The translations under genes and the position numbers were made by a program. Source: an uncultured Clostridia bacterium (GTDB lineage: Bacteria > Bacillota > Clostridia > Christensenellales > Borkfalkiaceae). Taken from it: DNA of 64,000 bases. Position 1 is the first letter of the stretch, and every line of letters begins with the position of its first letter. The notes under the pieces were generated by a model. That model did no database searches, was not told where the DNA came from, and saw nothing but the letters and a program-made list of their open reading frames with translations. The DNA is taken from NCBI GenBank assembly GCA_934796775.1, contig CAKVPH010000008.1, positions 19,136-83,135 of the forward strand, read 5' to 3'. Of this stretch, positions 9,512-45,230 are shown one piece after another.

Positions 9512-9620
9512 ATTTGCTCTTTTTTGTTTGGTTGTATAAAAAATTTTTTGTCCGGCAATAATTAAAATGCGTCCGGAAAGATTACTTTCGGGCATATTAT
9601 ATAACGGGGGCTATATCGTT

Positions 9621-10004
9621 ATGGACAATGAATTTCATTATATAAAAAGAGGAGAGCTGTATTACGCCGATTTAAGCCCCGTAATCGGAAGCGAACAAGG
9701 CGGAGTAAGACCCGTACTCGTGGTTCAGAACGACGTCGGAAACAGATACAGCCCGACGGTAATCGCCGCGGCGGTTACAAGCAAACTCAACAAAGCAAGA
9801 CTGCCGACTCACATAGAATTAAGCGCAAGCACTTACGGACTTATGAAAGACAGCGTGGTTTTATTAGAGCAAATCCGCACTATAGATAAACGCCGTTTAA
9901 AAGAACGTATAGGTCTGTTATCGCCTCAAACTATGATGAAGGTTGACGACGCGCTTTTAATAAGCCTTGGTTTTGCAAAGGAATACGACGCCAAAAAAGC
10001 GTAA
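9621..10004 (+). CDS. mazF: MazF/PemK-family endoribonuclease toxin (EndoA-like)
   Basis: [16 protein letters not shown] and IRTIDKRRL motifs; start trimmed to ATG 9621 after GGGGG; no upstream antitoxin ORF. Confidence 0.85.
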
Positions 10005-10151: not shown

Positions 10152-10203
10152 CACTCAAACAAGTTGATTGCTAAAAATAAAAAATATCAGGAGATTATAT
10201 ATT

Positions 10204-10617
10204 ATGAAAAACTATCTTACAGAAAAAAACAATAACGGAAACTACTTATTCGACGATATGTTCAACGACTTTTTTAAACCCGTATTTTATAAAGACAACG
10301 CAGACTACATGGCTACCGACGTAAAAGAACACGAGCATAGCTATGAACTCGAAATCGATATGCCGGGATATGATAAAAAGGATATTTCGGTTGATTTTGA
10401 AAAGGGTTATCTTACGGTAAGCGCGAAAAAAGAGCAGAAAAACAACGAAACCAAGTATTTAAGCCGTGAAAGACGCAGCGTTTCAAGAAGAAGCTATTAC
10501 GTTGGCGAAATCGACGAAAACGGCATCACCGCAAAATACGAAAACGGCGTTTTATCCATAAATTTGCCTAAACGCGTAGAAGAAAAACCCGCTTCAAAGC
10601 GCATTGCCATTGAATAA
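10204..10617 (+). CDS. Hsp20/alpha-crystallin family small heat-shock protein
   Basis: Alpha-crystallin domain (ELEIDMPGYDKKDISV ... GVLSINLPK); AGGAG RBS. Confidence 0.9.
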   Translation: MKNYLTEKNNNGNYLFDDMFNDFFKPVFYKDNADYMATDVKEHEHSYELEIDMPGYDKKDISVDFEKGYLTVSAKKEQKNNETKYLSRERRSVSRRSYYVGEIDENGITAKYENGVLSINLPKRVEEKPASKRIAIE

Positions 10618-11130: not shown

Positions 11131-11159
11131 TTGACTTACTTTTCATAATATGTTAGAAT
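11131..11159 (+). promoter_or_regulatory. sigma-A promoter of the YwaF-ABC operon
   Basis: TTGACT, 17 nt, TGT-TAGAAT extended -10. Confidence 0.65.
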
Positions 11160-11251: not shown

Positions 11252-13489
11252 ATGTATTATTTAATAGCAATAGGGTGTGCGCTTGTATTCGGGGCGGCAC
11301 TTTACGTAATCAATAAAAAATGCGGCAAAAATGCACTTGCCGGTAAAATAACGGCGGGAGTTCTGCTTTGCGTGTTTTTTGCAAGGTATTATTCGTATAT
11401 CGAATATCCTATCGATAACGTGATAGGACTTTCGCAAGGGCCCGACGGGGCGGTTGCGACTGCTTTTTCGCTTCTTTCAATCTGGTTTACGGCGGCGGCT
11501 CTTTGCATACTGCTTTTAAAACCTTATTTTGAAAGCGTAAATACTCTCGGCATTCTTACAAAGTATTTCTGTTTGCCGGCGTATATATTCGCCACCGCAA
11601 TGGCGTATTTTAACATACGGCTTTTAATGGGACCGGATTATACACAAACGATGCATTTTTCGGCAATAATGTACGCCGTAGAGTTGGGACTTGGGCTTGC
11701 GATAAGCGCAAGCGAATGGATGAAATATCCTAAGTTCGATAAACCGCAAAAGAGATGGTACACTCAGGTTATAGCACTTTTGGCAATGATAATCTGCGCT
11801 ATGCCGTCTTATTCGTTACAGATATTTTTTGGTTTAGGTCCCGCAAGCTGGGTAGTGGACGATTTAACCGTGACGCACAGATTATTTTTATACGCGGCGT
11901 TAATAATACCGGTCATCATATATTTTGCTCTTCGCGAAAAGGATTACGACGTAAGAAGGTTTGCGATGACTTATATGTCCATTGCGCTGCTGATAACCTT
12001 CTGCACGCGTTACAAATACGATTCATTCTTAAAACCGTGGTCGTGGCCGCTTCACCTTTGCAATACGGCGATGTTCGTAGTTCCGCTGTGTCTGGTGTTC
12101 AACATGAAAAGGTTGTTTTATTTCACCTATTTCATAAACGTAATGGGCGCGTTCTTTGCAATGGCAATGCCTAATTACGACTCGGTAAACATCACGCAGT
12201 GGGCGCTTGTAAACTTCTGGGTAAACCATTATCCCGCATTTTTCATGCCGCTGTTGCTTGTTGCGCTAAGAATATTCGAAAGACCTAAAATAAAGCAATT
12301 CTATCATTCGATGACTGCGTTTTTCGTGTATTTCGTATTCGTACTCGTGTTAAACCCGTTGTTTGCAAATTTCGGACACGAAGTTGACTTCTTCTTTTTA
12401 AACAGCGACTTTATTCCCGAAAAATTCGGAACATGGGCAGAAAATATGTTTGCCATAACTGCAGATATAAATATAGGAAACATAAAACTTACGTTCCATC
12501 CGCTGTATCAGCTGGCGTTCTTCCTCGTGTATGTGGGAATAGCGTTCGGAATATGGTTCATATACGAGCAGTTCTTCCGCTTAGCGGACGCTCATTACGA
12601 CATGCTTTTAAAAAAGAGAAAAATAAGACAGGACAAAATCGCACTCGCAAGTGCGCTTAACGGAAGGAGTATCGAACAACCTATGAATATAAAGGCGGGA
12701 ACAAAGCTTGAACTTAAACATTTTTCAAAAAAATACGCAAGCAGTAAAACGTACGCGGTAAAGGACGCAAATCTTATAGTAAACGGCGGCGAAATATTCG
12801 GCTTTTTAGGACCGAACGGCGCGGGTAAATCCACTATAATAAAGAGCATAGTGGGAATTCAGCCCATAACCGAAGGAGCGATAGAAGTCTGCGGGTTTGA
12901 CTGCGAAAAGCAACCCCGTCAGGCAAAAGCGCAGATAGGTTTCGTTCCCGATCATTATGCGCTTTACGAAAAACTTACCGGTCGCGAATATATAAATTAC
13001 ATTGCGGACATATACGACGTTTCAAAAGAAGAACGCACCAAAAGAATTGACGAAATGGTATCGCTTTTCGAACTTGAAGGTTCGTTCGATTGTTCGATGA
13101 AAACATATTCGCACGGCATGAAACAAAAAATAACCATAATGGCGGCTCTCGTTCACAATCCGAGGCTCTGGATACTCGACGAACCTTTAACAGGACTTGA
13201 TCCTAACAGTATCTTTCAGGTTAAAGAGTGCATGAGGCGTCACGCCGAAGCAGGTAATATAGTATTTTTCTCAAGCCACATAATCGACGTGGTAGAAAGA
13301 ATCTGCGACCGTATAGCAATTATCAAAAAGGGAAAAATATTATGTGTAAAAACTATCGAAGAGATCGAGGCGATCTGTCCGCTTGAAGAGTTTTACATGA
13401 AAATGATAAACGACGAAGAATTTTCTTCGCGTATAATCGCCGAGCAAGAGCGTATAAACGGCGCGGCAACCGGTGAAGTCGGAGCGTAG
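11252..13489 (+). CDS. fusion protein: YwaF/TMEM164-like polytopic membrane domain (about 470 aa) plus C-terminal ABC ATPase
   Basis: WPLHLCN, INVMGAFFAMAMPNY and VNHYPAFF resemble TIGR02206/YwaF; C-terminus has Walker A GPNGAGKST, signature YSHGMKQK, Walker B WILDEP. Confidence 0.7.
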   Translation: MYYLIAIGCALVFGAALYVINKKCGKNALAGKITAGVLLCVFFARYYSYIEYPIDNVIGLSQGPDGAVATAFSLLSIWFTAAALCILLLKPYFESVNTLGILTKYFCLPAYIFATAMAYFNIRLLMGPDYTQTMHFSAIMYAVELGLGLAISASEWMKYPKFDKPQKRWYTQVIALLAMIICAMPSYSLQIFFGLGPASWVVDDLTVTHRLFLYAALIIPVIIYFALREKDYDVRRFAMTYMSIALLITFCTRYKYDSFLKPWSWPLHLCNTAMFVVPLCLVFNMKRLFYFTYFINVMGAFFAMAMPNYDSVNITQWALVNFWVNHYPAFFMPLLLVALRIFERPKIKQFYHSMTAFFVYFVFVLVLNPLFANFGHEVDFFFLNSDFIPEKFGTWAENMFAITADINIGNIKLTFHPLYQLAFFLVYVGIAFGIWFIYEQFFRLADAHYDMLLKKRKIRQDKIALASALNGRSIEQPMNIKAGTKLELKHFSKKYASSKTYAVKDANLIVNGGEIFGFLGPNGAGKSTIIKSIVGIQPITEGAIEVCGFDCEKQPRQAKAQIGFVPDHYALYEKLTGREYINYIADIYDVSKEERTKRIDEMVSLFELEGSFDCSMKTYSHGMKQKITIMAALVHNPRLWILDEPLTGLDPNSIFQVKECMRRHAEAGNIVFFSSHIIDVVERICDRIAIIKKGKILCVKTIEEIEAICPLEEFYMKMINDEEFSSRIIAEQERINGAATGEVGA

Positions 13490-13494
13490 TAAAA

Positions 13495-15129
13495 ATGAAA
13501 CACTTATATGCGCTCGTGATGATGCAGCTTAAAGATAAGCTTGATTTTTCGTTTTTAAAAACAAAGCAAAAGCTTATTTCAAAGATTGTATTCACCATTT
13601 TAAAATTTATAATAGTAGCCGCCGTTGCATACGGAATATTCAAGGTGCTGAACCTTCTCTTTTTTAACTACGGTATCAAAAAAGAGCTTATGGTGTTTAT
13701 TTTTGCGGTAATATTTTTTCTGTCGCTCATATCGTGTACGGTAGGGCTGATGAAAAATCTGTATTTTGCCGACGATAACAAAGTGCTTATAACTTTCCCC
13801 GTGAACGCAAACCTGATATTTATTTCGCGGCTTATAGTTTACTACATCTTTGAACTCAAAAGAAGTTTATTTTTAACCATTCCCATATTTATTGCGTTCG
13901 GAATAATGACTAAAATCACCGCACTGTATTATTTGTGGCTGGTAGTTGCTTTTGTGTTCATATCCGCGCTGCCCGTGCTGTTCGGCTCGCTTTTATCCAT
14001 TCCCGCACTGTATATATACACGTTTATTAAAAAACGCGCGGCTTTAAAAGTAGGCATATACGTAATTGCAATTGCGGCGGTCGTTTACGGGGCGGTAACA
14101 TTAATAGGGCTTATTCCCACAAGCATAAACCTTATACAGCAAAAAGGCGAAATAACCGCGCACGTCAATAAATTTTTAATGGGTTGCAGAACGTACTGCT
14201 ATCCCGTAAACTTTTTAACCACAATGCTTTGCGGAAACGAAAGCGGAATGACTTATAACATTTTCGTAAAGCAAGTACCCGTTTATTTCGGTGTTTTAGT
14301 TGCGCTTTTACTTATATTCTTCGTTTTGGCGTACTTTGTTTCAAGACCGCTTTTCTTCTCGATGATGTCAAAAACTTTCGAGTTTGAAAAGATTCCGCCC
14401 AAAAAGGTTCAGACGGATAAAAAACGCAAAAAAAGTATTACTTTCTTCCGTGCGGAAATTATGAGCCTTATGCGTTCCGGTTTTGTGGGAACTTTTGTTG
14501 CAATGTATATAATCGTTCCCGTAATGATATATCTTTTAAACAAGATATTCGCCGCAATGGACACAAATCTTTCGGGCGTATATATGGTTTATGCGTTCAA
14601 CGTGCTTATCATGATATTGCCCATGCTCGCGTCAAACGCGCTTATAGCCACTATTTACTCGCGTGACGGCAGGGCGGCTTACGTAACAAAAACCATGCCG
14701 CTTGATCCGCGCTTCCCGCTTGCGGTCAAAATTGCGCCTATGGCGGTGGCTTCCGCAATCTCGCTTGCAATAAGCGTAGTGGTATTTTCAAGATTTGTCG
14801 CGCTTACAACCGCAGAACTTATTTTGCTTAGCGTCGGACTTATAGGTATTCAGTGGGGACACATAATGTGGAGCGCAATGCTCGATATCATGAACCCGCA
14901 AAACGAACAGTACGCAACGTTCGGCGAAATGACGGATAATCCTAACGAAAATTTTTCTACTATAATCGCGTTCATAATCGCCGCGATTTACGCAGTTTAT
15001 TCGTTCATATTGTTCCCTGAAGGCGTTACAAAAGCATGCGTAAAACTTTGCGCTATCGGCGTGGTGTTTGCCTGCACCTTAGCGTATATGTTCTTTACAA
15101 AAATCAAAGTTTACTATTTTGAAAAGTAG
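13495..15129 (+). CDS. polytopic membrane protein, putative ABC-exporter permease partner
   Basis: 544 aa, 12 or more hydrophobic helices, starts 6 nt after the ATPase fusion. Confidence 0.6.
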   Translation: MKHLYALVMMQLKDKLDFSFLKTKQKLISKIVFTILKFIIVAAVAYGIFKVLNLLFFNYGIKKELMVFIFAVIFFLSLISCTVGLMKNLYFADDNKVLITFPVNANLIFISRLIVYYIFELKRSLFLTIPIFIAFGIMTKITALYYLWLVVAFVFISALPVLFGSLLSIPALYIYTFIKKRAALKVGIYVIAIAAVVYGAVTLIGLIPTSINLIQQKGEITAHVNKFLMGCRTYCYPVNFLTTMLCGNESGMTYNIFVKQVPVYFGVLVALLLIFFVLAYFVSRPLFFSMMSKTFEFEKIPPKKVQTDKKRKKSITFFRAEIMSLMRSGFVGTFVAMYIIVPVMIYLLNKIFAAMDTNLSGVYMVYAFNVLIMILPMLASNALIATIYSRDGRAAYVTKTMPLDPRFPLAVKIAPMAVASAISLAISVVVFSRFVALTTAELILLSVGLIGIQWGHIMWSAMLDIMNPQNEQYATFGEMTDNPNENFSTIIAFIIAAIYAVYSFILFPEGVTKACVKLCAIGVVFACTLAYMFFTKIKVYYFEK

Positions 15130-15143
15130 GAGGCGTTAAGAAT

Positions 15144-15557
15144 ATGAAAAAATCCGTAATTTTAACGCTTATTGCAATTTATGCCGTATCCATATGCGTG
15201 GTCGGATATTTCGGGCTTAATGTAAGAATTTTAAATCCTACCGTTTATGCCGATACCGTTACCATAGATTACGTTTTATACGGCGATACTAAAATCGATT
15301 ACAAAACCAACCAGAGCGGAAAATACGTCAGAATCAAGGATTATGACGAAGGTCAAAGCATAAAAATCGTGTATACGGTAACCCCGCATGACGCAACAGA
15401 TAAAAGCGTTACCTTTTCTTGCGATAAATCGCTGGCCGAAATTACCAAAGACGGAATAGTAACGCTCAACAAAAAAAAGATTATTTTAGACGTTACCGTA
15501 ACCGTAGATGCCGCTCAGAACGTAAAAGACAAAATAAAAATACTTATCGGCTATTAA
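15144..15557 (+). CDS. membrane-anchored bacterial Ig-like (Big_2-like) domain protein
   Basis: N-terminal TM helix; TVTPHDATDKSVTFSCDKSLAEITKDGIVTL resembles the Big_2 signature. Confidence 0.55.
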   Translation: MKKSVILTLIAIYAVSICVVGYFGLNVRILNPTVYADTVTIDYVLYGDTKIDYKTNQSGKYVRIKDYDEGQSIKIVYTVTPHDATDKSVTFSCDKSLAEITKDGIVTLNKKKIILDVTVTVDAAQNVKDKIKILIGY

Positions 15558-15617
15558 TCGGCGATTACCCGATTTTTAGATATAAAGAAAAAAATTGTGA
15601 TAAAAAGGAGATCTATC

Positions 15618-17831
15618 ATGAATTTCAGGAAAGTACTGATACTGATACTTACCGTTTTAACGGTAACCTCGCTCAGCTTGTTTGTTGCCTGCCATAGAGA
15701 TAACGACAATTCAAGCAGCAGCCAAAGCGGAGAAGTTACTCTCAGCAAAATAGAGTACGTTTCGGGTATTCCCGAAATGCTTGTAAGAGGAACTACACCC
15801 GACTATACCGAGCTTAAAATCAAAGCTACTTACAGCGATAATAAAACTGAAGAAATCGTTTACAATGCAACCGATTTCAACGTGACCGTAGATACGAGCG
15901 TAAAAGCCGAATCCGTTCCCGTAACCATAGTTTATAAGGGCAAAACGGCTACGACAAACGTTAAAGTTGATTTTGAAATCGCCGCGGTCGGACAAGCCGA
16001 ATTCGTTATTAACTACGAAAAAAATGTAGGCGAAAACTCCGTATTTAAGGATACTACAAAAGAGTATGTAGTAGGCGCGTCAAACGCTTTCTATTACGTT
16101 CCCGTAGTAACCGTTCTCGATTCCGAAGTAAACCCCTATACTTTCGATAAATCGGGCGATTTTGAAATCTTTGCAGAGGTTTATAAAAAGGTGGGCGGCG
16201 AGTATACGCTTTTAACCGATCCCGCAAGCGAAGTTGAAATCGACACCATGAACGCGTCGTTCAAGTTTGCTCCTGCAGCTATAGGCAACAGCTACAAATT
16301 AGTGGTTCGTCCTGCCGAACTTACAGACGAACAACTTGCCGAAGAAGACGGCGATTACTCAAAAGAATTTTCTTTCCGCGTAGCCGACGCTTACAACGTT
16401 TACTCTGCCGCAGAACTTCTTTTATGGGATAACCGTACCGACGAAGACGGTCTTGCCGTAAAAGCGTTCAGAGAATCAAAAGGCGTAACCGTAGACGCAA
16501 ATTCTTTAAAAGGACTTGCTCTTCATTGCGATTTATCACTCGGCAAAGACGATATAGCCCCTGAATTCTTCTATGATCCCGAACGTGATCCTTCTGCTTT
16601 TGCAGGACTTTCAGCTGAAAGAAAGGAGCTTTTAAACGGTTCGCTTAAAGACTTCGAAGATTTAATTTCGCGCATTCTCGGCGACGACGGTAAGTTTGAT
16701 TTTGAAGGTAATTTCTATACTGTTTCCGTAGAAAAAATGCCTCTGGTAGTTTGGGAACACGATGCCGACAAAGCGTTTACCAAAAATCCCGAATCGGTTG
16801 TAAGCCATACAACGCTTTTAAGAATTCAGGGCAATTCAAGCAATAATTCTACAAATCATACCGAACTTGGCACTGTTAACAACGCAAACTTTATAGGTAA
16901 CTTAAACCGTCAGGACAGCGTATGGTCGGGCGGCTGCATCTTAATTAAAGCCGACGGCGCGGCTGTTGAAATGAACAACATCGTTGCAACCCGTTGGTAT
17001 ATAACCGCGTTCTCCGAAAAAAACAGCGATACTAACCACCTTGTTTTAAACAAAGTTACCTTCCGCGATAACTACAACTGTTTCATATACCTTTGGGGCG
17101 GAATAGTAAACATAAACGACAGTACTCTCCAAGGCGCAGGCGGTCCTGCAATCATAGCCGACCATGTCGATAGAAACTCTTCGGATTCGGGTAGAACCGG
17201 CAGCAAGGGTTGGCCAAGCGAAATCAACGTTAATGCAAGTTCTTTAATTGAATCCGTAGTTACCGGACAAGAAGGTTGGTTTGCAGAATTTAACGCTCAG
17301 TCCGCTGCAGCTCAGATAGTTGCTATGGATGAATTGTTTAAGCCGTTTGGCCGTACTTTCACTATAGGGACTAAGAGTGTTACCGTAAACGGTAAAGAGG
17401 AAACTTATAAAACGATTAACCTTGTAGCTATATTTAAGGATTCCGAAGCCTCAGGCATGACCTTTACCAAAATCAGCGGTAAGGCAAAAATCGGCGGCGG
17501 CGACAACGCTCACGTTCTCGATTACGATAATCAATATACCGCAGGAGTTCTTGATGCATTTAAAGGCTCCGGAGCGCCCATAATTCAAAGTTCTTTAGCC
17601 GGTATAATAGCTTATATGGGTAACGACAGCAATGGTATTCCCCAAATAGCAGAACCTTTAAAAACAGGCTCTACGGCTATTGATTTTATGGCAACTGTTC
17701 AGGATCCTTCAAAACATCCGCAGATATTCAAAGATACCGGATATCTTAACTTGTTCTACGGCGACAAAGGCGTGAACAACGACGGATATATGGGAATAAT
17801 ACTCGGTAATTACAGAGCTTTAAAAGTTTAA
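15618..17831 (+). CDS. large lipoprotein with N-terminal Ig-like domain and beta-helix-like repeats
   Basis: Lipobox SLFVAC; start trimmed to ATG 15618 after AAAGGAG; Asn/Gly-rich repeats (NNANFIGN, VNINDSTLQGAGGPAI) suggest a parallel beta-helix. Confidence 0.6.
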   Translation: MNFRKVLILILTVLTVTSLSLFVACHRDNDNSSSSQSGEVTLSKIEYVSGIPEMLVRGTTPDYTELKIKATYSDNKTEEIVYNATDFNVTVDTSVKAESVPVTIVYKGKTATTNVKVDFEIAAVGQAEFVINYEKNVGENSVFKDTTKEYVVGASNAFYYVPVVTVLDSEVNPYTFDKSGDFEIFAEVYKKVGGEYTLLTDPASEVEIDTMNASFKFAPAAIGNSYKLVVRPAELTDEQLAEEDGDYSKEFSFRVADAYNVYSAAELLLWDNRTDEDGLAVKAFRESKGVTVDANSLKGLALHCDLSLGKDDIAPEFFYDPERDPSAFAGLSAERKELLNGSLKDFEDLISRILGDDGKFDFEGNFYTVSVEKMPLVVWEHDADKAFTKNPESVVSHTTLLRIQGNSSNNSTNHTELGTVNNANFIGNLNRQDSVWSGGCILIKADGAAVEMNNIVATRWYITAFSEKNSDTNHLVLNKVTFRDNYNCFIYLWGGIVNINDSTLQGAGGPAIIADHVDRNSSDSGRTGSKGWPSEINVNASSLIESVVTGQEGWFAEFNAQSAAAQIVAMDELFKPFGRTFTIGTKSVTVNGKEETYKTINLVAIFKDSEASGMTFTKISGKAKIGGGDNAHVLDYDNQYTAGVLDAFKGSGAPIIQSSLAGIIAYMGNDSNGIPQIAEPLKTGSTAIDFMATVQDPSKHPQIFKDTGYLNLFYGDKGVNNDGYMGIILGNYRALKV

Positions 17832-17969: not shown

Positions 17970-18005
17970 AAATCGGGGTAACGTCAAACTTACCCCGTTT
18001 TTTTT
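17970..18005 (+). terminator. rho-independent terminator
   Basis: CGGGGTA/TACCCCG stem with T8; a second hairpin without a T tail lies at 17849-17874. Confidence 0.7.
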
Positions 18006-18365
18006 ATGCTTTAAAACGTCCGTTTATTGTTTTTTGCATGCGCAAAAACACTCACCGCAAAGGCAGTCGTAAATGTGGTTGCGCTTGCCCGGTTTTGTAT
18101 TTTAAAAAACTCATTCAAGCAAAAAATTAAAACGTTTCTTTATTTTTTTACATATTCAAAAACTTAGTTTTACAAAGAATAAAAAAATAATGATAATTTT
18201 AAAATCGTAGATAAAACCTATGATTTTTTTATTTTTACGCTTAAAAAATCATTGTTTTAAATTTTTTCACCTTAAAAAAACAAAGTTATATTACTTTTTT
18301 GATATTTACAACTGCTTTAAAGTATGGTATAAAATAACCGAACACAAAAAGAGGCGATTATTCAA

Positions 18366-19124
18366 ATGACTGATTTAATTTTTTTTGGCGGACAAAGTAA
18401 CATGCAGGGGCAAACGGAAAGTCTTTTAAAAAAAGATCCTGTTAAAAACGCGCTCGAATATCGGCTTTTAACCGACGAGCTTATCCCTTTGCAAAACCCC
18501 GTCGGCGAAGATATAGACGAGCTTTTGCTTTCTTCCGCTTACGGACACGGTTCCTTAATTCCCGATTTTACCGAGGCGTATATCAAAAAGGCGGAAAGAA
18601 GCGTTGTGTGCGCGCATGTTGCAAAAGGCGCAACTATTCTTGCGGACTGGCAAAAAAACGGTGAATCGGGCAAAGCGCGCTACCAAAAACTTGTTGAAAA
18701 GTGCAAAGGCGCAAAAAACAAGGTAAAGGACGCAGGTAAAACGCTGTTTATCTGGTTGCAGGGCGAAAGCGACGCTTTGGCGCACACTTCCAAAAACGAC
18801 TACGAAAAAATGCTTAAAGCCTTTAAAAACGACTTGCAAAACGACCTTAATATAGATGCGTTTATGATAATAGAAGTAGGCTATTTTGCAAGCAACTTCG
18901 GCGGCAGGGAATACGACGAGCAGATTATGGCTGCGCAGGAAGAATTGTGCTCAGACGGCGCAAGCGGCGGTTTTTATATGCTTACCGATATAACGAAGAA
19001 ACTGTCGCTCGATCAAAAATATATAAATCCTATCGCGGTGGGGCATTTTAATAACGTGGCAATGCAGATTATAGGAAGTACGGCGGGCGAAAAAGCTGCC
19101 GAAATCGCGCTTAACCTTAAATAA
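18366..19124 (+). CDS. SASA/DUF303-type carbohydrate O-acetylesterase
   Basis: N-terminal FFGGQSNMQGQ motif plus WLQGESD; no signal peptide. Confidence 0.65.
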   Translation: MTDLIFFGGQSNMQGQTESLLKKDPVKNALEYRLLTDELIPLQNPVGEDIDELLLSSAYGHGSLIPDFTEAYIKKAERSVVCAHVAKGATILADWQKNGESGKARYQKLVEKCKGAKNKVKDAGKTLFIWLQGESDALAHTSKNDYEKMLKAFKNDLQNDLNIDAFMIIEVGYFASNFGGREYDEQIMAAQEELCSDGASGGFYMLTDITKKLSLDQKYINPIAVGHFNNVAMQIIGSTAGEKAAEIALNLK

Positions 19125-19173
19125 GTAAAAAAATTAAGCAACTAAAAAATACAACATAAAGGAAAGAGAGAAA

Positions 19174-20613
19174 ATGAGTAAAACATTATTAAAAACAATG
19201 GCACTCGCTCTGTCGGTTGCATGCGTTATGTTCTCGGCTTGCACGACAAGTGGCAATAACTCTTCTTCGTCGTCATCAAGCGGCAAAACTACGCCCGTAA
19301 TCGAAAAAGAAACCATTCCCGATTACTATCAGAATAAAGGCGAAAACAATTTTATAGTGGGAATGTGGAGCGGCATAGCCGAAAATAAGACTTACGTTGA
19401 CGAGTTTTACAGAGTAACCGGCACAGCCGCCTGGACTGACGCCGAGTTCGATAATCAGTACAAACTCATAAAAGAAGCAGGTTTTACGTTAGCCGCCACA
19501 CCCATAGGTTTGTTTTCGAACGACCATATAATAAGGCTTTTAGAATCCGCCGAAAAATACGGTCTTAAACAGCTCGTATGGGATAGTGCGCTCAACAATA
19601 TTTTAATGGATTCTTCTTTAAGCGAAGAAAATGCAGTTGTAAAAGCAAGGCGTGCGGTGGTTGATTATATCGATTACGATAGTTTTTACGGCAATATGAT
19701 AACCGACGAGCCGAATTCCAAGGAATTCGACGCGCTCGCCCGTGCCGCAAAAATATATAAAAAAGCCTTCCCCGATAAGATGTTTTATTTAAATCTTTAT
19801 CCTGTTCTGGCAACTCCTTTGCAGACGGGTGAAGACGATTATACCGAATATTTAAGAAAGTACGAAAGTTTAGGGCTTGATTACGTATGTTACGATAATT
19901 ATCCCTTAAAGCGCGGCACAGGCGGAACTACAGTGCTTAAAGATAATTTTGTGTATAACATGCAGCTTGCAAACGCCATGCAGACCAAACCCAAGGTATG
20001 GAGCTTTTTACAGTCCATGGGCTTTGGAGGAATGAAAGAACCAGACTGCGTTGAAGATTTCCGTATTCAGCTCAACATTGCGCTTGCAAACGGGCAGAGT
20101 GCGATTCAGTGGTTCTGTTATTTCTCGCCCGGATACGGCGGATCCGAAAACTTTACTCCCGCAATAATAATGATGGACGGCACTCCTACCGAAAAATACG
20201 ATTATGTTAAAACAGTAAATAACGAAATAGCTGCCTGGGGCGATATTTATTCGCGCTTTGCATTTAAAAAATCCATGAACGTAGTAGGAAGCGAAAACCA
20301 AAAAGGCGAAAACGCCGCATTCAACTATATTAAAACCGATAATTCGCACGACCGCATAAAAAGTCTTTCCGTAAGCAAAGATACTATAATAGGCGTGTTT
20401 AAAGACGACGAAAACCGCGACGGTTTTATGGTTACGAATTACGACATACCCTCTTCAAAGCAGGTAAGCAAAGTTGAAATTTGTTTTCACGGTTGCACTA
20501 AGGCGATAGTTATAAAAAACGGCGTAAAGAGCCTTATAGACGTATCGGACGGCAAAGTCAGCTTAGATTTAAAAGCGAGCGAAGGCGCGTTCGTAATACC
20601 TTTGAATATCTGA
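19174..20613 (+). CDS. lipoprotein, TIM-barrel glycoside-hydrolase-like (unclassified family)
   Basis: Lipobox MFSAC and Ser-rich linker; ITDEP, NLYP and CYDNYP motifs; paralogue of 26521-27594. Confidence 0.5.
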   Translation: MSKTLLKTMALALSVACVMFSACTTSGNNSSSSSSSGKTTPVIEKETIPDYYQNKGENNFIVGMWSGIAENKTYVDEFYRVTGTAAWTDAEFDNQYKLIKEAGFTLAATPIGLFSNDHIIRLLESAEKYGLKQLVWDSALNNILMDSSLSEENAVVKARRAVVDYIDYDSFYGNMITDEPNSKEFDALARAAKIYKKAFPDKMFYLNLYPVLATPLQTGEDDYTEYLRKYESLGLDYVCYDNYPLKRGTGGTTVLKDNFVYNMQLANAMQTKPKVWSFLQSMGFGGMKEPDCVEDFRIQLNIALANGQSAIQWFCYFSPGYGGSENFTPAIIMMDGTPTEKYDYVKTVNNEIAAWGDIYSRFAFKKSMNVVGSENQKGENAAFNYIKTDNSHDRIKSLSVSKDTIIGVFKDDENRDGFMVTNYDIPSSKQVSKVEICFHGCTKAIVIKNGVKSLIDVSDGKVSLDLKASEGAFVIPLNI

Positions 20614-20671
20614 AAAAATAACGGCAAGCTGAAAAGCGTAAGCCGTAACTTAAATATCAGGAGGAAATAAA

Positions 20672-22117
20672 ATGAAGAAAATTTTGGCGTTTTTATTGTG
20701 CATAATCGCTGTTTTATCGGTTGTGGCATGTAAAAAACCGCAGGTTGAAGACAGCGACGGCATAACCGTAGTAAACAACGGCGACCGTATTTATGCTACG
20801 GACGCAGATCAAAAATCGCTTTCGGTTATCAAAATCGGATTTACCGAAGCAGGCTTTGGCAGAGAATGGCTTGTTGAAATAGCAAAAAGCTTTATTAAAG
20901 CAAACGATTCTTACGAAATTCGTCTTGAAGGCGATCCGAGCTTAGCCGACTCTATGTCCACAAAACTCGACTCGGGCGAAAACTTAAGCGATATATTTTT
21001 CCCGCTCAACTCCGCGTGGGAAGTGTATGCGTCTAAAGGACAATTAGAGCCGCTCGACGACGTTTATGCCTCTAAGCCCGACGGCGAAAGCGGCGAAACG
21101 GTAGAGCAAAAGACAGACGAAAATTATAAAACATACGCTAAATACACAACCAAATACGGCACGCATTACTACATGCTTCCGTGGAACGACACCGTTACCG
21201 GCATTGTATATAACGTAAAGATGTTTAATGAGTACGGTTGGAAAATTCCCGAAACTACCGACGAACTCGAAGAATTATGTAAAAAAATCATAGCGGATAC
21301 CAAAGATAAGGTTAAACCCTTTGCATATCCCGGCAAGATAGGCGGATATTTTGATTATATAGGATCTACCTGGTGGATGCAGATAAGCGGAATAGACGGA
21401 GTAAAGAGCTTTTTCGACTTTGATTCGGCAGAAGTTTATAATCCCGCAACTCAGCCCGCGCTCGGCAAAAAGCAGGCTTTGGAAGAATTCTTGCGTTTTT
21501 ACTCGCCCGATAAAGGTTACTGTATTTCCGGTAGTATGAGTAAAGACCATACCACTTCGCAAATGGACTTTATCAACGGCAAAGCCGCAATGATACTGAA
21601 CGGTAACTGGATGGAATGCGAAATGAAGACTAACATGGACGAAGATTTTACCATGGGTATGATGAGCGTTCCTTACGTTAAAAACGCTAAAAAGGACGCA
21701 GACGGAAATTACGTTAAAGTTAATTATACCGCTCCTCCCGATTACATAATAATTCCCAAGGAAGCGGCAAATATCAGCGGAGCAAAGAAGTTCTTAACGT
21801 TTATGACAAGCGACGAAATGTTAAAACTCTATACAAAAATAACCGGTAGCCCGCGTCCGTTCTATTACGATCTTGCTTCTATCGACGGACTTTCAAAGTT
21901 CAATCAGGACGTACTTAAATTAAGAGCGGAATCGAATACCATGTTCGACTTTTCGCGCAAAGGCGTTTATATGTACGGATATGCACCCAAATACATAGGC
22001 GGTCAGCCGTATTCCGCGCTTATAAGGGGAGAGATGACTCCGCAGAGATTTTGCAATCTCGAATACGTAGAAGCGGACGATAACTGGGACGAATGGCTTT
22101 CCAAATCCAACTTGTGA
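20672..22117 (+). CDS. sugar ABC transporter substrate-binding lipoprotein
   Basis: Lipobox SVVAC; size and composition of family-1 extracellular solute-binding proteins; followed by permeases. Confidence 0.8.
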   Translation: MKKILAFLLCIIAVLSVVACKKPQVEDSDGITVVNNGDRIYATDADQKSLSVIKIGFTEAGFGREWLVEIAKSFIKANDSYEIRLEGDPSLADSMSTKLDSGENLSDIFFPLNSAWEVYASKGQLEPLDDVYASKPDGESGETVEQKTDENYKTYAKYTTKYGTHYYMLPWNDTVTGIVYNVKMFNEYGWKIPETTDELEELCKKIIADTKDKVKPFAYPGKIGGYFDYIGSTWWMQISGIDGVKSFFDFDSAEVYNPATQPALGKKQALEEFLRFYSPDKGYCISGSMSKDHTTSQMDFINGKAAMILNGNWMECEMKTNMDEDFTMGMMSVPYVKNAKKDADGNYVKVNYTAPPDYIIIPKEAANISGAKKFLTFMTSDEMLKLYTKITGSPRPFYYDLASIDGLSKFNQDVLKLRAESNTMFDFSRKGVYMYGYAPKYIGGQPYSALIRGEMTPQRFCNLEYVEADDNWDEWLSKSNL

Positions 22118-22130
22118 GGAATAGTTTTTA

Positions 22131-23069
22131 ATGGAATCGCAAGATCTTAAACGAAAACGCAAAACTAAAATTAAACGCGCGCTGTTTATAGCGTCGTTTA
22201 TAGGAATTCCTATTTTGCATTTTCTCGTATTTAATCTGTACGTCAATATAGATACGGTTGTACTGTCGTTTCAAAAATTCAGCAACCAGAAAGGCGCGTA
22301 TATACTCGTAGGGTTTTTAAACTACAAAGAATTTTTCGAGTCGTTTTCGGCTCCGGGCAGCGTTTTAGGAAAAGCAATAGTCAATTCGATTTTGTTTTTT
22401 GTGGTAAACGACTTTGTAATTTTACCGCTCGCGTTTATTTCGGCGTACTTTATGTATAAAAAAATATTGCTGGCAAATATGTTCCGCGTGCTGTTCTTCT
22501 TGCCGTCTATTATATCGGTAGTCGTTTTAACAATGCTCTTCTCGTTTATGTTCGACAGCTCTATCGGAATAGTCGATTCTTTTTTCGAGCTTATCGGCAG
22601 GGAAGATTTAATTCCCGCGCTCGGCTGGTTCGGCGATTCAAAAACGGCAATGCCGGTAGTGCTTTTGTACTGCATCTGGGCGGGCATCGGCTCTAACGTA
22701 GTGCTTATATCTGGCGCAATGAGCCGTATTCCGCAAGAAATGATAGAAGCGGGAAAACTCGACGGACTCACGTTTTTTAAAGAAATGGTAAAAATAACGC
22801 TTCCGCTTACAGGTTCGCTTTTGGCAACGCTTATGATGATGGGCGTTCCCGTAATCTTTACTTTGTTTTTACAACCCATGCTTTTAACAAACGGCGGGCC
22901 TGACGGCGCAACTTACACAATAGGCTTGTACATAGTCAGTCAGATAAGAACCAACAGCAACTTAACCATAGGCGCAACCGTTGGCGTTATATGCGCGGCA
23001 ATCGGCACGCCCATAGTAATACTGCTCAGAAAATTAGTGGAGAACACGTTCCCCGCTTATGAATATTAG
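22131..23069 (+). CDS. sugar ABC transporter permease (MalF/LplB type)
   Basis: Six TM helices; EAA loop EAGKLDGLTFFKEMVKITLP. Confidence 0.85.
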   Translation: MESQDLKRKRKTKIKRALFIASFIGIPILHFLVFNLYVNIDTVVLSFQKFSNQKGAYILVGFLNYKEFFESFSAPGSVLGKAIVNSILFFVVNDFVILPLAFISAYFMYKKILLANMFRVLFFLPSIISVVVLTMLFSFMFDSSIGIVDSFFELIGREDLIPALGWFGDSKTAMPVVLLYCIWAGIGSNVVLISGAMSRIPQEMIEAGKLDGLTFFKEMVKITLPLTGSLLATLMMMGVPVIFTLFLQPMLLTNGGPDGATYTIGLYIVSQIRTNSNLTIGATVGVICAAIGTPIVILLRKLVENTFPAYEY

Positions 23070-23080
23070 GAGGAAAATTT

Positions 23081-25567
23081 ATGAAAAAATTTCTTAAGCT
23101 CATCACATGTCTTGTCGCGGCGGTAATAGTAATTTCCGCATTACACGTCGGGACTAACGCCACCGTGCAAGCTGCTACAAAACGCACTTCTGTAGTTGCA
23201 AGCTTGCTTACGAACAAAGGAAAAGTCAACTCTGCCGACTGGTCGGTCGAAGGCGACAAAAACAATCTTTCAATTTCAAACAACGGTAAAGTATTTAAAA
23301 TAAGCGGCGCACCGTGGCCGGGTTATCGTATTTTTCCGTATGATTCAATTCCCGGCGGCAACGGCTACTATGTGGAACTTGACGTACTAAAAACTAACGA
23401 AAGCAATGCAAAAATCAATCTTTCGGGCTGGGTTACCAACTGGGGTAACGGCGCGGCAAGTAACATTTATGTATCTTCTATAGGAATAGATCCGGGTTTA
23501 GGCACAAACTACGGCGCAAACGGAAACAAAGACGCCGTCTGGAACGGCGTAAACGCAGTTTTGAAAGGCGGATTCAGATATCGTTTCTGGTTCAGAGTAA
23601 ACCCTGACGACGCAACCCGCGGCGATCTTATTGTTTATCAAAAAGATCTTTCGGTTGAAAACTCTGAATTTGTAGAAGGCTGTGTTTTATATAAACTCTG
23701 CACTATAGACGACAGCGCGCATTACGCACATCTCTATTTTGAAGGCGATCTCGTTGTAGATAACTTCGCGTTCAAAAAAGAGGACGGCACCGTAATTTTC
23801 GAAAACGATTTTTCAGACGTTTCTATTATTGATATGAACGGAATTCCGCAGAGCGGAAAAATGTACAAAAGCGGCGGCGAAGTAGTAAACGATTCTTATC
23901 TTGCTTTAAACGGAGAAGAAAGACTTATTTCTGCTTTAAAAGTTGAAAAGGGCGAAGGTTTAAGCAAGGTTTTCGAACTTAAAACTTCGGTTAAAGTATC
24001 TTCTACTGCAGGCAAAGCAGGTATTATGCTCGGTATGAAAGACGAAACCGCCGGGTTCGGTTCGGATAAAGCCTATACGCTCGCTTTTGAAAACGTATCC
24101 GACGGCACTGCAACCACTACCGAAATGAAGCTTATAAGCGGAGAAAAAGTTCAGTCTTATAACTTAGGTATTTGTTTAAACGACGATTTCCACGAACTTA
24201 AAGCTTCGGGCGACAGCACGGGCAAACTCGAAGTAACCGTTTCAGGCGCAAAAAACGAAAGTTACGTATTTGAAAACGTTGACTTCTTAGGTTATATAGG
24301 TTTAGCAACCGATAAAACCGCGGGTGCGGAAATTGCATTCACTCCCGAATTTACCGTTGACAGCTACACCGGAGAAGTCGGAACGGGCGCGGATATAGCA
24401 AACAACTTCAATACCGGCTATATCAATCCTTCCGTTTACGAAAACGACACTCACCCCGCTGTAACGCTTGGCGAAAACGGCAAGGGTATAGTTGCAAAAG
24501 ACGGAATTTTGAAATTCGACGGAACTTCCGACGGCACTCACTTTGCCATTAACGGAATTTATGCTGACTTTATTATGCAGTTCGACTGGATCAACTATGC
24601 TTGGAGTGACAGACCTACTGCCGAAGACGGAACCGTTTTCAGAAAAGCTAAACCTGCCGACGGCAAAGCTACCGAACTTTATTCGCCTTTAGGTATAGCT
24701 TTCGGTAAAAAGACCACTACAGGCGGCTGGGCAGATACCAAACTTTTAAGAATTTTCGATTCGTTGAACCTTGTTCAGTTCTTAAATAATGACGAAGGCG
24801 GCCTTGCTTATAACGAATGTATGGGAACAGGATTTGCTACTCCCGAACAGGTTGCGGATATCAAAGACGGAAAGATCAATCTTTACGAAGAAACCGTAAA
24901 TCTTAAAATAGTTGCTTTAAACGGCAACCTGAAAGTTTACGGCGTAATTATTAAAGACGGCGTAGCCGACGGCGAACATAAGCTCATAGCCGAATTCCCG
25001 TATGAAAACTGCACCGGTTATATCTCGATTTCTACCGGTGAAGCGGCATATTTCGGAATAGATAACTTAAGAATTACCAAGATTGACGGTTGGACGGACG
25101 AACAACTTGCCGCATACGACAACTTTGCTCAGATTGCGGACGAAAAAGCCCCCGAAACCTTAACGGTTCCCGTTTTAAGCGTAAACGAAAAGACCGTTTC
25201 GTGGGAAGCAGTAGCAAACGCTACGGGTTATATAGTAACCGTAAACGGCGTTGCAGGCGAGAAAATTACCGATACGAGTTTTGTACTTGACAAAACCGAA
25301 GTCGGCGACTACGTTATAACCGTAAAAGCTATAGGCGACGGAGAAAAGTATCTCGACAGTGCAGACAGCGAGTCCGTAACGATAACAATAGCTGCGCCTG
25401 CTCCCGATTCGTCATCAGGCGGAACTTCGGCAAGTTCGTCATCAGGCGAAGGAAGCGAACAGACCGAAGACTGCAGCAGCTGCGGCGGTTCTATGGCAGG
25501 CTCTGCGCTTTTATGCTTAGGCTTAGGCGTTGCCGCTTACGCGATTATAAAAAAGAAAAACAGATAA
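23081..25567 (+). CDS. secreted cell-surface protein with ConA/LamG-like (DUF1080-like) modules, an Fn3 domain and a C-terminal TM anchor
   Basis: Sec signal ending VQA-A; Fn3-like SWEAVANATGYIVTVNG; Ser/Gly linker, then hydrophobic helix and KKKNR tail; no LPXTG. Confidence 0.6.
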   Translation: MKKFLKLITCLVAAVIVISALHVGTNATVQAATKRTSVVASLLTNKGKVNSADWSVEGDKNNLSISNNGKVFKISGAPWPGYRIFPYDSIPGGNGYYVELDVLKTNESNAKINLSGWVTNWGNGAASNIYVSSIGIDPGLGTNYGANGNKDAVWNGVNAVLKGGFRYRFWFRVNPDDATRGDLIVYQKDLSVENSEFVEGCVLYKLCTIDDSAHYAHLYFEGDLVVDNFAFKKEDGTVIFENDFSDVSIIDMNGIPQSGKMYKSGGEVVNDSYLALNGEERLISALKVEKGEGLSKVFELKTSVKVSSTAGKAGIMLGMKDETAGFGSDKAYTLAFENVSDGTATTTEMKLISGEKVQSYNLGICLNDDFHELKASGDSTGKLEVTVSGAKNESYVFENVDFLGYIGLATDKTAGAEIAFTPEFTVDSYTGEVGTGADIANNFNTGYINPSVYENDTHPAVTLGENGKGIVAKDGILKFDGTSDGTHFAINGIYADFIMQFDWINYAWSDRPTAEDGTVFRKAKPADGKATELYSPLGIAFGKKTTTGGWADTKLLRIFDSLNLVQFLNNDEGGLAYNECMGTGFATPEQVADIKDGKINLYEETVNLKIVALNGNLKVYGVIIKDGVADGEHKLIAEFPYENCTGYISISTGEAAYFGIDNLRITKIDGWTDEQLAAYDNFAQIADEKAPETLTVPVLSVNEKTVSWEAVANATGYIVTVNGVAGEKITDTSFVLDKTEVGDYVITVKAIGDGEKYLDSADSESVTITIAAPAPDSSSGGTSASSSSGEGSEQTEDCSSCGGSMAGSALLCLGLGVAAYAIIKKKNR

Positions 25568-25593
25568 TTTAAAATTTTAAGGCACAACACGTT

Positions 25594-25622
25594 TTGCGAA
25601 GCGGAAAAAAACCGCTTCGCAA
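25594..25622 (+). other. 11-bp perfect hairpin without a U tract, inside the operon
   Basis: TTGCGAAGCGG-A7-CCGCTTCGCAA between the surface-protein gene and the second permease gene. Confidence 0.8.
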
Positions 25623-25654
25623 GGCAAAAATTATAAAAGGTTAAGGCATTATAA

Positions 25655-26521
25655 ATGGCTGCAAAATATAAAATCAAACAATACAGCACAGGCGAAAAAG
25701 TTATTATGGGAGTTGCTTTCGCGCTCTTTTTGTTGTATTCGATAACGCTTATATTTCCGTTTGTGTGGTGTTTTTATAATTCATTCAAAACCAACCGCGA
25801 GTTTTTCAGCGACGTATGGAGTTTACCGCAGGAATGGTTGTTTTCCAACTGGGGCGACGCGTTCAATCTGTCGGTTAGCGGCGTGGATATAGGCGGAATG
25901 TTTTTAAACAGTATAATCATGACGGTAGTAAATACTTTAATAAGCATTTTTATGTCCGCCATGACGGCTTACATAATCGCAAAATATCCGTTTAAAGGAA
26001 GTGCCGCGTTTTACGTTACCGCGCTTGTCCTTATGATGATTCCGTCTGTCGGGTCAATGGCTGCGACTTATAAAATGTATAACGAACTCGGTCTTTACGA
26101 TACGTATATCGGTATATTCATAGGAGCGTTCGGCGGATTCGGTTCAAGCTTTATATTGCTTTACGGATTTTTTAAAAACCTTGAATGGAGTTTTGCCGAA
26201 GCCGCTTTTATAGACGGAGCAAACGATTACATAGTCTTTTTTAAGATTATGCTTCCCATGGCTCTTCCGGGGCTTATTTCGGTCGGTATTTTGTCCGCAA
26301 TAGGCGTTTGGAACGATTATTTTACCATTTATATGTATGCGCCGTCAAAGGTAACAATCGCGGTAGGACTGCAAGGTCTTATAAGCAGAATGCAGTTTAA
26401 AGCCAACTATCCGCTCTTATTTGCGGTCATGATAATGTCAATTATTCCCGTAATAGCCGTATTTTCGGCGTTCCAGAAAACAATTATGAAGAATACCACG
26501 CTCGGAGGAGTGAAAGGCTGA
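25655..26521 (+). CDS. sugar ABC transporter permease (MalG/LplC type)
   Basis: Six TM helices; EAA loop EAAFIDGANDYIVFFKIMLP. Confidence 0.85.
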   Translation: MAAKYKIKQYSTGEKVIMGVAFALFLLYSITLIFPFVWCFYNSFKTNREFFSDVWSLPQEWLFSNWGDAFNLSVSGVDIGGMFLNSIIMTVVNTLISIFMSAMTAYIIAKYPFKGSAAFYVTALVLMMIPSVGSMAATYKMYNELGLYDTYIGIFIGAFGGFGSSFILLYGFFKNLEWSFAEAAFIDGANDYIVFFKIMLPMALPGLISVGILSAIGVWNDYFTIYMYAPSKVTIAVGLQGLISRMQFKANYPLLFAVMIMSIIPVIAVFSAFQKTIMKNTTLGGVKG

Positions 26522-27594: not shown

Positions 27595-27595
27595 T

Positions 27596-27628
27596 TTAAA
27601 AAAAGGCTTGTTTTTGCCTTTTTTTTAT
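27596..27628 (+). terminator. probable terminator
   Basis: A-run/AAGGC ... GCCTT/T-run hairpin. Confidence 0.5.
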
Positions 27629-27670
27629 GCTAAACTTATTGTAATAAAAAGGTATAGGGCGGAAAAAACT

Positions 27671-45179: not shown

Positions 45180-45189
45180 AGCTAAAATA

Positions 45190-45228
45190 TAAAAAAAAGT
45201 TCCCGATAACATGCGATACGGGAACTTT
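45190..45228 (-). terminator. tRNA-Ala terminator
   Basis: AAGTTCCCG/CGGGAACTT stem followed by T8 on the minus strand. Confidence 0.8.
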
Positions 45229-45230
45229 AA

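Follow-up and report, generated by a model that had tools for sequence, protein, structure and literature searches.

The window analysed here, a 64,000-nucleotide (nt) stretch of contig CAKVPH010000008.1 from an uncultured Clostridia bacterium, carries a four-gene cassette whose first product joins a membrane domain of the TMEM164/YwaF type to an ATP-binding cassette (ABC) ATPase, and whose other products are a permease and two surface proteins. Through hundreds of species the four genes are co-inherited in fixed order, as an obligate set. In our best explanation, for which we see the chances as evenly balanced, the cassette uses ATP to translocate a lipid or lipid-linked molecule and ties this to acyl transfer or hydrolysis at the outer face of the membrane. 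The original prediction for this locus had likewise proposed an ATP-coupled lipid or glycolipid machine, serving the co-encoded surface proteins; we arrive by inference at the same kind of machine, with service to the surface proteins as one option.

A conserved four-gene cassette

The open reading frame (ORF) listing of the window contains four consecutive ORFs on the + strand. P1 (11252..13489) is a 745-amino-acid (aa) fusion of a 13-transmembrane (TM) domain, a tether helix and an ABC ATPase, with matches to PF14808 and PF00005. P2 (13495..15129) is a 544-aa polytopic permease of the PF16949 (ABC_tran_2)/12TM_1 type (Pfam) that has no nucleotide-binding domain (NBD) of its own. P3 (15144..15557) is, by Pfam and hydropathy, a 137-aa bitopic protein with an N-terminal TM anchor (aa 5–23) and an extracytoplasmic Big_2 domain. 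P4 (15618..17831) is a 737-aa lipoprotein in which an AlphaFold2 (AF2) model distinguishes a lipobox, a Ser-rich linker, two immunoglobulin (Ig)-like domains and a large beta-solenoid-like domain. The mechanical ORF of P4 opens at GTG 15597 and would give 744 aa, while a start at ATG 15618 gives 737 aa; a Shine–Dalgarno sequence, AAGGAG, lies 7 nt 5′ of this ATG, and a 99%-identical database protein is likewise 737 aa long.

Gaps of 5, 14 and 60 nt separate the genes, in keeping with the operon of closely spaced genes (about 60 nt or less) that had been predicted. All four genes have a Shine–Dalgarno sequence; that of P2 is a GGAG site 11 nt upstream of the start, within the 3′ end of P1, and that of P3 is AGGAGG. 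A consensus scan found a promoter-like site (TTGACT-17 nt-TAGAAT with an extended −10 TG; 11131..11159, + strand) 93 nt upstream of P1. With 10 of 12 consensus matches it is the top + strand site of the region, as a consensus match only, and the number of promoter-like sites in the region is not above shuffled expectation. A terminator-like hairpin on the + strand (17974..18007), CGGGGTAA-loop-TTACCCCG followed by T8, begins 143 nt past the P4 stop and has an 8-bp stem with 5 GC pairs, so that promoter-like site and hairpin enclose exactly the four cassette genes. The hairpin (17974–17997) has T-runs on both strands and scores as a terminator in both directions; it may additionally terminate a convergent or antisense transcript.

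A database search for the same fusion and its neighbours had been proposed as a check, and it returned both. Among 5.8 billion clusters searched, at least 120, at 49–100% identity, carry PF14808 and PF00005 full length; source databases name them only ‘YwaF family protein’ or ‘ABC-2 type transport system ATP-binding protein’. In a scan of one genome per species, relatives occur in at least 563 species-level genomes. The carriers are nearly all uncultured gut or rumen Clostridia (Christensenellales-like), RF39-like Bacilli and Erysipelotrichia, with ‘Staphylococcus sp. CAG:324’ and ‘Coprobacillus sp. CAG:698’ as named carriers among the Bacilli. A phmmer search with the P1 core (aa 195–445) against 1.84 billion representatives gave 191 clusters; the best 150 of these (50%-identity representatives) comprise 62 fusions with a Walker A motif, 33 unfused 13-TM proteins of 430–520 aa, and for the rest fragments or short proteins. 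The P1 membrane domain had no match in plasmid or phage collections.

We examined 80 fusion-bearing loci in two ways: partners were sought by BLAST of P2–P4 against six-frame ORFs, and in a second, query-free test on the same loci all ORFs were clustered independently of the window proteins. Four families, and no others, recur: P1 (80 loci), P2 (77), P3 (66) and P4 (62). P2 lies directly 3′ of P1 in 77 of the 80, the 3 exceptions being at contig ends, and P3 occupies the slot between P2 and P4 in its 66 loci. The genes keep one order and one strand. In a single locus the cassette is rearranged, with the best P4 homologue upstream of P1 (L079:7877-9901). No other conserved neighbour was found in these loci or in the 48 loci of the unfused group described below, and the genes flanking the cassette in the window (Hsp20-like, MazF-like, SGNH-like and a 479-aa lipoprotein) are not conserved beside it. 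Independent gene calls on a 537-kb NCBI contig give the same layout (762/579/163/772 aa), with three partners that have no Pfam match on record.

The same parts also occur as separate genes. Among 48 metagenomic loci fetched with the unfused 13-TM group, seven have a 13-TM gene followed by a separate NBD gene whose product is 49–57% identical to the P1 NBD. A P2 homologue (23–30% identical, weak PF16949 match) comes next in 6 of the 7, those in which the contig continues past the NBD gene, giving the order 13TM / NBD / permease. Two longer split loci, L121 and L128, continue with a Big_2 protein (1.6e-10 and 4.3e-22) that is larger than P3 and in the same position, and then with a large protein bearing N-terminal Ig-like domains. 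A kinship of this last, 837-aa protein with P4 was considered and is not supported (hhalign probability 2.7%). Because the seven loci keep the separate genes adjacent, the partnership of enzyme and ABC module occurs both fused and split. In about 40 loci (L081–L113, L116–L120 and L125–L127) the unfused 13-TM YwaF-like protein (about 450–500 aa) has no ABC genes adjacent and no recurrent neighbour; the motif of this sister family is P[LF]QLCN, with its Cys and His invariant.

The four proteins

The WPLHLC, GAFFAMAMPNY and NHYPAFF blocks by which the membrane domain of P1 had been recognised as YwaF-like are at aa 265–270, 299–309 and 325–331. Pfam agrees with that identity: PF14808 (TMEM164) matches aa 209–392 (E=5.2e-18; 65.8 bits, gathering score 25) and is also above threshold in P1 homologues and in one split relative. 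Of the approximately 470 aa that had been assigned to a YwaF-like domain, only about 240 aa make up the acyltransferase core. TIGR02206, which NCBIfam now describes as a TMEM164-related integral membrane acyltransferase, matches aa 208–374 (9.9e-15) with 54.5 bits, below its curated cutoff of 75, and the Pfam profile of DUF1405 (the LhaT/YpjA family) had no match in P1 at E<=0.1. The possibility that the N-terminal domain is an ordinary ABC-2 permease was checked with profile searches, in which neither ABC_membrane nor ABC2_membrane matched P1 aa 1–470; hhalign found no relation between the P1 membrane domain and P2, and Foldseek matches of the P1 model cover the NBD only and include no solved relative of the membrane domain. 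Since this domain is unrelated to any ABC transmembrane domain, P1 is not a canonical ABC half-transporter.

The AF2 model of P1 (predicted local distance difference test score, pLDDT, 84.8; predicted template modelling score, pTM, 0.64) has 13 predicted TM helices. The first 198 residues (11252..11845, + strand) form a clade-specific six-helix extension (helices at 2–24, 28–46, 67–92, 97–126, 136–158 and 169–193), defined by AF2 and hhalign, that carries the invariant residues R45 and E144 and is common to the unfused 13-TM relatives. Neither of the identities considered for it, a duplicate of the core or a cryptic ABC-2 half, gave any hhalign signal against the core or P2. Residues 199–440 (11846..12571) are the core of the ATGY (TMEM164/YwaF) acyltransferase type, TM7–TM13, as delimited by PF14808, the sub-cutoff TIGR02206 match and AF2, and residues 441–484 (12572..12703) are, in the model, the cytoplasmic extension of TM13 and a linker tethering the NBD. 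TM13 is modelled as a single helix (aa 417–469) that runs into the cytoplasm toward the NBD; the junction helix is conserved among fusion homologues, and split relatives terminate within or just past it.

Because the NBD must be cytoplasmic, P1 has an N-out/C-in topology, and with the NBD inside every Lys/Arg (K/R)-rich loop of P1 falls on the cytoplasmic side. The cytoplasmic TM5–TM6 loop (aa ~160–168; alignment columns ~220–360) is an insertion hot spot: an abundant subgroup (P0045/P0047/P0049, 840–842 aa) has a ~100-aa beta-rich insert, and two other subgroups have highly charged inserts of 60–90 aa; P0085 and P0109 are among the proteins with inserts here. We considered the P0045-type insert as a Big_2 link between P1 and P3; Pfam returned only SpaA_4 (E=0.028), BLAST against P3 gave E=0.19, and the loop is cytoplasmic by topology, so this Rosetta-stone idea was dropped.

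Within the core, invariance and the AF2 model single out two residues as a candidate active site. Cys270 (codon 12059..12061, + strand; WPLHLCNTAM) is a putative nucleophile near the outer end of TM9, and His326 (codon 12227..12229, + strand; NHYPAFF), on the outer half of TM11, is the putative catalytic histidine. Cys270 is invariant in 20/20 fusion homologues, as is His326 in the same alignment (50–72% identity); both are invariant too in the distant unfused sister group, and the motif P[LFIM][HQ..][LMIF]C[NHDS] is found in nearly all complete relatives. They lie on helices two and four of the six-helix core TM8–TM13, 56 residues apart. In human TMEM164 the dyad C123/H181 is on core TM2/TM4 with a spacing of 58 residues, and mutation of C123 abolishes activity (bioRxiv 10.1101/2022.07.06.498872). 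Taken together, the profile matches, the invariance, and the helix positions and spacing suggest that Cys270/His326 are the equivalent of C123/H181. A 297-aa relative (P0394) was considered as a true TMEM164 with which the dyad could be aligned directly, but it proved to be no TMEM164 and to lack the Cys. In this short core relative WPLNLVE replaces WPLHLCN, so the putative nucleophile is absent and the protein may be a non-catalytic member.

Further invariant residues in the 20 homologues include H209/R210 at the outer end of TM7 and R45 and E144 in the extension, and the outer loop VDFFFLNSDF..K.G.WAE is conserved. Altogether, 21 of 27 invariant polar or aromatic residues of P1, with C270, H326, H209/R210, R45 and E144 among them, are on the outer side, either in loops or in that half of the membrane. 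On the modelled topology, the P1 core would be an active Cys/His acyl-enzyme catalyst that opens to the outer leaflet.

The C-terminal part of P1 (aa 485–720; 12704..13411, + strand) is the complete ABC nucleotide-binding domain that had been noted at the outset. PF00005 (ABC_tran) matches aa 504–646 (7.7e-26), and Walker A (GPNGAGKST, 12809–12835), the signature (YSHGMKQK, 13106–13129), Walker B with its catalytic Glu (WILDE, 13169–13183), the D-loop (TGLD) and the H-loop (SSH, 13271–13279) are all invariant in the 20 homologues. At the Q-loop position (VPDH, 12944–12955) the Gln is missing and D567/H568 are invariant instead; acidic Q-loop substitutions are known in other ABC-2-class ATPases. 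The top NCBIfam matches (DrrA, GldA, NodI) are of the ABC-2 class. By sequence, the nearest relatives in the PDB are the phospholipid transporters ABCA3/4/1/7 (178 bits for ABCA7 NBD2 on a single domain), followed by bacterial ABC-2 ATPases (136 bits), NosF (117) and LptB (115). The best fold match in Foldseek is EcsA, taken from an integrative EcsA–RasP model (template modelling score, TM-score, 0.88; 32% identity); matches to EcsA and LptB have TM-scores of 0.85–0.91, and NosF is at rank 37.

P2 matches PF16949 with 4.6e-11 and 42.7 bits, against a cutoff of 25.7. Despite its name (ABC_tran_2), this is a family of putative ABC permeases, which we take to belong to the ABC-2 clan. P2 homologues carry PF16949 and/or PF09847 (12TM_1); in 23 members, PF16949 was found in 16 and ABC2_membrane_4 in 2 (best 6.8e-4). 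Sequence and profile searches of the PDB gave no solved relative of P2, and it has no EcsB-family Pfam match. By hydropathy and sequence, its N-terminus and central loop are both K/R-rich, which is compatible with two six-helix halves that each open with a cytoplasmic interface segment. A P2–P3 fusion was looked for in 730-aa P2 homologues (P0264), and no similarity to P3 was seen. The protein had been described simply as having 12 or more TM segments; it is indeed polytopic, and it can now be named as a putative ABC permease. The view that a YwaF fold stands in place of the ABC transmembrane domain has to be given up, as the dedicated permease is the next gene. Because P2 is an ABC-2-type permease of PF16949, the acyltransferase is an added module and not a substitute for the ABC transmembrane domain.

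For the two surface proteins the predicted architecture holds. P3, described as a TM-anchored Big_2-like protein, has a Big_2 (PF02368) match above the gathering score (3.1e-5; 24.3 bits against 22.8) besides its anchor. P4, described as a lipoprotein with Ig-like and beta-helix-like parts, is modelled (pLDDT 90.1, pTM 0.84) as a signal/lipobox helix and a disordered Ser-rich linker, with a pair of Ig-like domains and a beta-rich solenoid of ~440 aa. Its lipobox, LFVAC with Cys25, predicts a bacterial lipoprotein; across 28 homologues this Cys is conserved to at least 90%, and 59 of the 62 P4 homologues in the loci have a lipobox.

Pfam finds in P4 only a weak Big_3 match, and no other Pfam domain in 49 detectable homologues. 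The Ig-like domains best match S-layer domains of B. anthracis Sap (Foldseek, E=1.4e-5). Foldseek matches of the solenoid are to GH87/GH49 enzymes and phage tailspikes in the PDB (E=0.03–0.05) and to viral models (1.4e-4 at best, TM-score <=0.26); because they are weak and non-specific, no enzyme class can be assigned to P4. Sequence and profile searches of the PDB with P4 gave nothing useful, NosD/CASH was absent in Pfam, in the PDB profile search and among the 50 Foldseek matches listed, and neither P3 nor P4 showed homology to Lpt proteins.

Proposed mechanism and alternatives

We propose that the four genes encode one envelope machine. Two P1 chains would dock their NBDs on one pseudo-dimeric P2, giving a translocator of the ABC-2 type with an acyltransferase domain on either side. 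Driven by ATP hydrolysis, it would bring a lipid or lipid-linked molecule into the outer leaflet or take one out of it. The tethered enzyme would form an acyl-Cys270 thioester at the outer leaflet from an ester-linked acyl donor, and the acyl group would then go to water or to some acceptor. On the outer face, P3 and P4 might act as a receiving or presenting scaffold, or the lipidated N-terminus of P4 might itself be the acceptor; this lipid-anchored end would then share a leaflet with the active site, as is the case for the lipoproteins on which LhaT, a relative discussed below, acts. P3 and P4 could equally be structural parts of the machine. Overall, the cassette would be a flip-or-extract plus (trans/de)acylation device for an envelope lipid, glycolipid or lipoprotein. 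The leaning toward lipids draws on the NBD sequence ranking, in which the ABCA phospholipid transporters are nearest and LptB and NosF come after them.

Several points weigh against this explanation. Relatives in the P1 clade, whether fused, unfused or short, score 50–58 bits on TIGR02206, so the clade is a divergent branch and not canonical YwaF. The ~40 13-TM relatives that have no adjacent ABC genes mean that the extended enzyme can act without the transporter. The two halves of P2 lack the significant mutual similarity that a pseudo-dimer would lead one to expect (hhalign E=0.067, probability 0.8%), and both the P1–P2 contact and the 2:1 stoichiometry are putative. The outward orientation of the active site is taken from helix boundaries and the positive-inside rule and not from coordinates, and the modelled cavity of TMEM164 also has a cytosolic portal. 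NBD likeness is a weak predictor of substrate, the large domain of P4 has no confident structural relative, and no glycosyltransferase or lipid synthase gene is conserved near the cassette in the 80 loci.

A more specific version of the scheme is possible, though we hold it tentatively. Here ATP hydrolysis would power or gate acyl transfer on the outside, with the ABC module delivering a lipid-borne donor to the Cys/His site or removing the product. Acyl transfer would act on the co-encoded lipoprotein or on a surface lipid, and P1 would be the first ABC ATPase covalently coupled to an intramembrane acyltransferase.

Somewhat less likely is a machine that transports nothing, in which ATP hydrolysis moves P3 and P4, so as to activate, assemble or release P4, and the NBD gates the acyltransferase. 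FtsEX, LolCDE and NosDFY are the models for such mechanotransmission. The presence of two co-encoded extracytoplasmic proteins fits this picture, as does the NosDFYL-like layout of an ABC-2 ATPase and permease with an extracytoplasmic beta-helix protein and, in Nos, the accessory lipoprotein NosL; NosF is among the NBD relatives, and the rigid TM13–NBD helix could pass motion to the enzyme core. Yet P4 has no sequence or fold match to NosD/CASH or to a known enzyme, P2 is by Pfam and hydropathy not a permease of the FtsX/MacB type with a large extracytoplasmic domain, and the present data fit real transport alike.

The gut habitat of the carriers bears on a further alternative, that P4 and P3 catch host or dietary lipids, the YwaF domain transacylates them in the outer leaflet independently of coenzyme A (CoA), and the ABC module flips the products inward. 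We regard such scavenging as improbable. A precedent is TMEM164, which transfers acyl groups from phospholipids to lysolipids without CoA (bioRxiv 10.1101/2022.07.06.498872). Topology prediction puts the active site in the outer leaflet, where there is no acyl-CoA or acyl-acyl carrier protein, the NBD is closest to ABCA lipid transporters, and the hosts (uncultured gut or rumen Clostridia, RF39-like Bacilli and Erysipelotrichia) are small-genome gut Firmicutes in which the cassette lies on the chromosome and was absent from the plasmid and phage collections. The proposal is nonetheless pure inference; ABC-2-type systems are typically exporters, and P4 has no recognisable lipid-binding fold.

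Resistance or immunity is less probable again. In that case an ABC-2 pump would expel a membrane-active compound, either a lipopeptide or one like a lantibiotic, which the ATGY domain would inactivate at the outer leaflet as an AIG1-like hydrolase. The NBD does score well against ATPase families of lantibiotic protection (9.5e-44) and daunorubicin resistance (3.3e-62), both below the cutoffs, and the ATGY superfamily includes the hydrolases AIG1/ADTRP (bioRxiv 10.1101/2022.07.06.498872). Against it, the cassette has no conserved association with a two-component regulator, a biosynthetic cluster or a mobile-element context, strict four-gene conservation in at least 563 species together with two dedicated surface proteins looks like housekeeping, and PADLOC and other defence libraries gave generic ABC/AAA ATPase matches for P1 and none for P2–P4.

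That a frameshift or assembly error made the 745-aa ORF, a check already foreseen in the original prediction, or that the fusion has no function, is effectively refuted: split versions in the sister clade do show that the parts can be separate polypeptides, but the fusion recurs in at least 120 clusters from independent assemblies, in 62 of the best 150 representatives and, across species, in at least 563 genomes; its junction helix is conserved and in the model runs on from TM13 without a break; and the split genes stay adjacent with the same partners.

If the proposed machine is real, its interest lies in the chemistry of the cell surface. Activated acyl donors are made in the cytoplasm, and acylation outside the cell therefore has an energy problem; the known solutions, MBOAT/DltB, AT3/OatA and LhaT, are each different. 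A Cys/His acyltransferase wired to an ABC ATPase and permease would be a further, ATP-linked solution, and would amount to a new route for acylation or lipid remodelling outside the cytoplasm in hundreds of uncultured gut Firmicutes. At least 563 species-level genomes of gut and rumen Firmicutes carry the cassette, and very little is known of the cell envelope in these lineages. It would also provide the first function for the bacterial YwaF branch and a handle on the uncharacterised PF16949/12TM_1 permeases. Point mutants of Cys270/His326 and of Walker B Glu644 would be a clean means of separating the two activities. Lipoprotein N-terminal chemistry governs TLR2 recognition, so a lipoprotein-modifying role, if true, would touch host–microbe signalling.

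Genomic surroundings and comparison with known systems

Upstream of the cassette, translations identify a MazF/PemK-like ORF of 145 aa (9567–10004) and, directly before the cassette, a small Hsp20/alpha-crystallin-like ORF of 149 aa (10168–10617). The list of ORFs of at least 80 aa has no antitoxin-sized ORF immediately 5′ of the MazF-like gene, and neither gene lies beside the cassette in any of the 80 other loci. Past the terminator-like hairpin, an apparent carbohydrate-utilisation cluster (18366–31035) with several large same-strand ORFs includes an SGNH/sialate-O-acetylesterase-like protein (FFGGQSNMQG), the 479-aa lipoprotein and a sugar-ABC solute-binding lipoprotein (20672–22117). An SGNH-like gene is near the cassette in 1 of 80 loci, and the carbohydrate cluster is unlinked to it elsewhere. 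Farther away, a tRNA-Ala(GGC) gene (45231–45306, − strand) overlaps by ~45 nt the 5′ end of a 329-aa − strand ORF (44286–45275), the true start of which is probably further downstream.

Our literature search found no paper on bacterial YwaF function, on PF16949 function or on a fusion of TMEM164/YwaF with an ABC ATPase. The P1 core resembles TMEM164/YwaF in its PF14808 match and in having a Cys on core TM2 and a His on core TM4 at a similar spacing (56 vs 58). It differs in its sub-cutoff TIGR02206 score, the six-helix extension, the ABC ATPase fusion, the four-gene cassette and the predicted outer-leaflet-facing site. Bacterial YwaF had been said to have no assigned function; this is right for YwaF proper, which is uncharacterised, whereas its ATGY relative LhaT (YpjA, DUF1405) of Bacillus subtilis is an extracytoplasmic lipoprotein N-acetyltransferase, whose donor, acetylated heptaprenylglycerol, must first be flipped outward (PMC12345273). 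The cassette enzyme would share with LhaT the superfamily, action at the outer face, lipoprotein substrates and a lipid-carried donor, and LhaT, the strongest precedent for such logic, is by analogy a plausible template for how the ABC module and P4 relate to the enzyme. LhaT is of another branch, has six TM helices and lacks both an ABC partner and dedicated surface proteins, and its donor genes pcrB and yvoF do not occur near the cassette in the 80 loci.

On the transporter side, the cassette shares its NBD class with the ABC-2/type V systems (DrrAB, NodIJ, Wzm–Wzt/TarGH, ABCA) and with LptB2FGC, and in the split relatives the permease gene follows the NBD gene as it does there. ABC-2/type V and Lpt systems typically handle lipids or lipid-linked molecules. 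P3 is like LptC in layout, being bitopic with a TM segment and a beta-sandwich. Unlike all of these, the cassette has its NBD fused to a non-transporter enzyme domain, and P2 belongs to the uncharacterised PF16949/12TM_1 group. NosDFYL likewise pairs an ABC-2-type ATPase and permease with an extracytoplasmic beta-helix protein and a lipoprotein, and NosF is a detectable NBD relative; however, P4 is not NosD-like, Nos has no acyltransferase, and there is no copper or N2O-reductase context here. The resemblance to NosDFYL and LptB2FGC is thus one of layout only.

EcsAB–RasP of Bacillus subtilis provides the best NBD fold match, EcsA, and an example of an ABC-2 ATPase that contacts a polytopic membrane enzyme, although the partner there is an unfused site-2 metalloprotease and the system has no Ig or beta-solenoid partners. 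MprF, a lysyl-phosphatidylglycerol synthase fused to its own flippase, embodies the same principle of a lipid-modifying enzyme joined to the translocator of that lipid, with unrelated folds, no ABC ATPase, a cytoplasmic enzyme and a flippase that is not ATP-driven. Set beside these systems, the kinds of component in the cassette are already known, and what is new is their combination, in which an ABC-2 system has an ATGY acyltransferase fused to it and two surface partners of its own.

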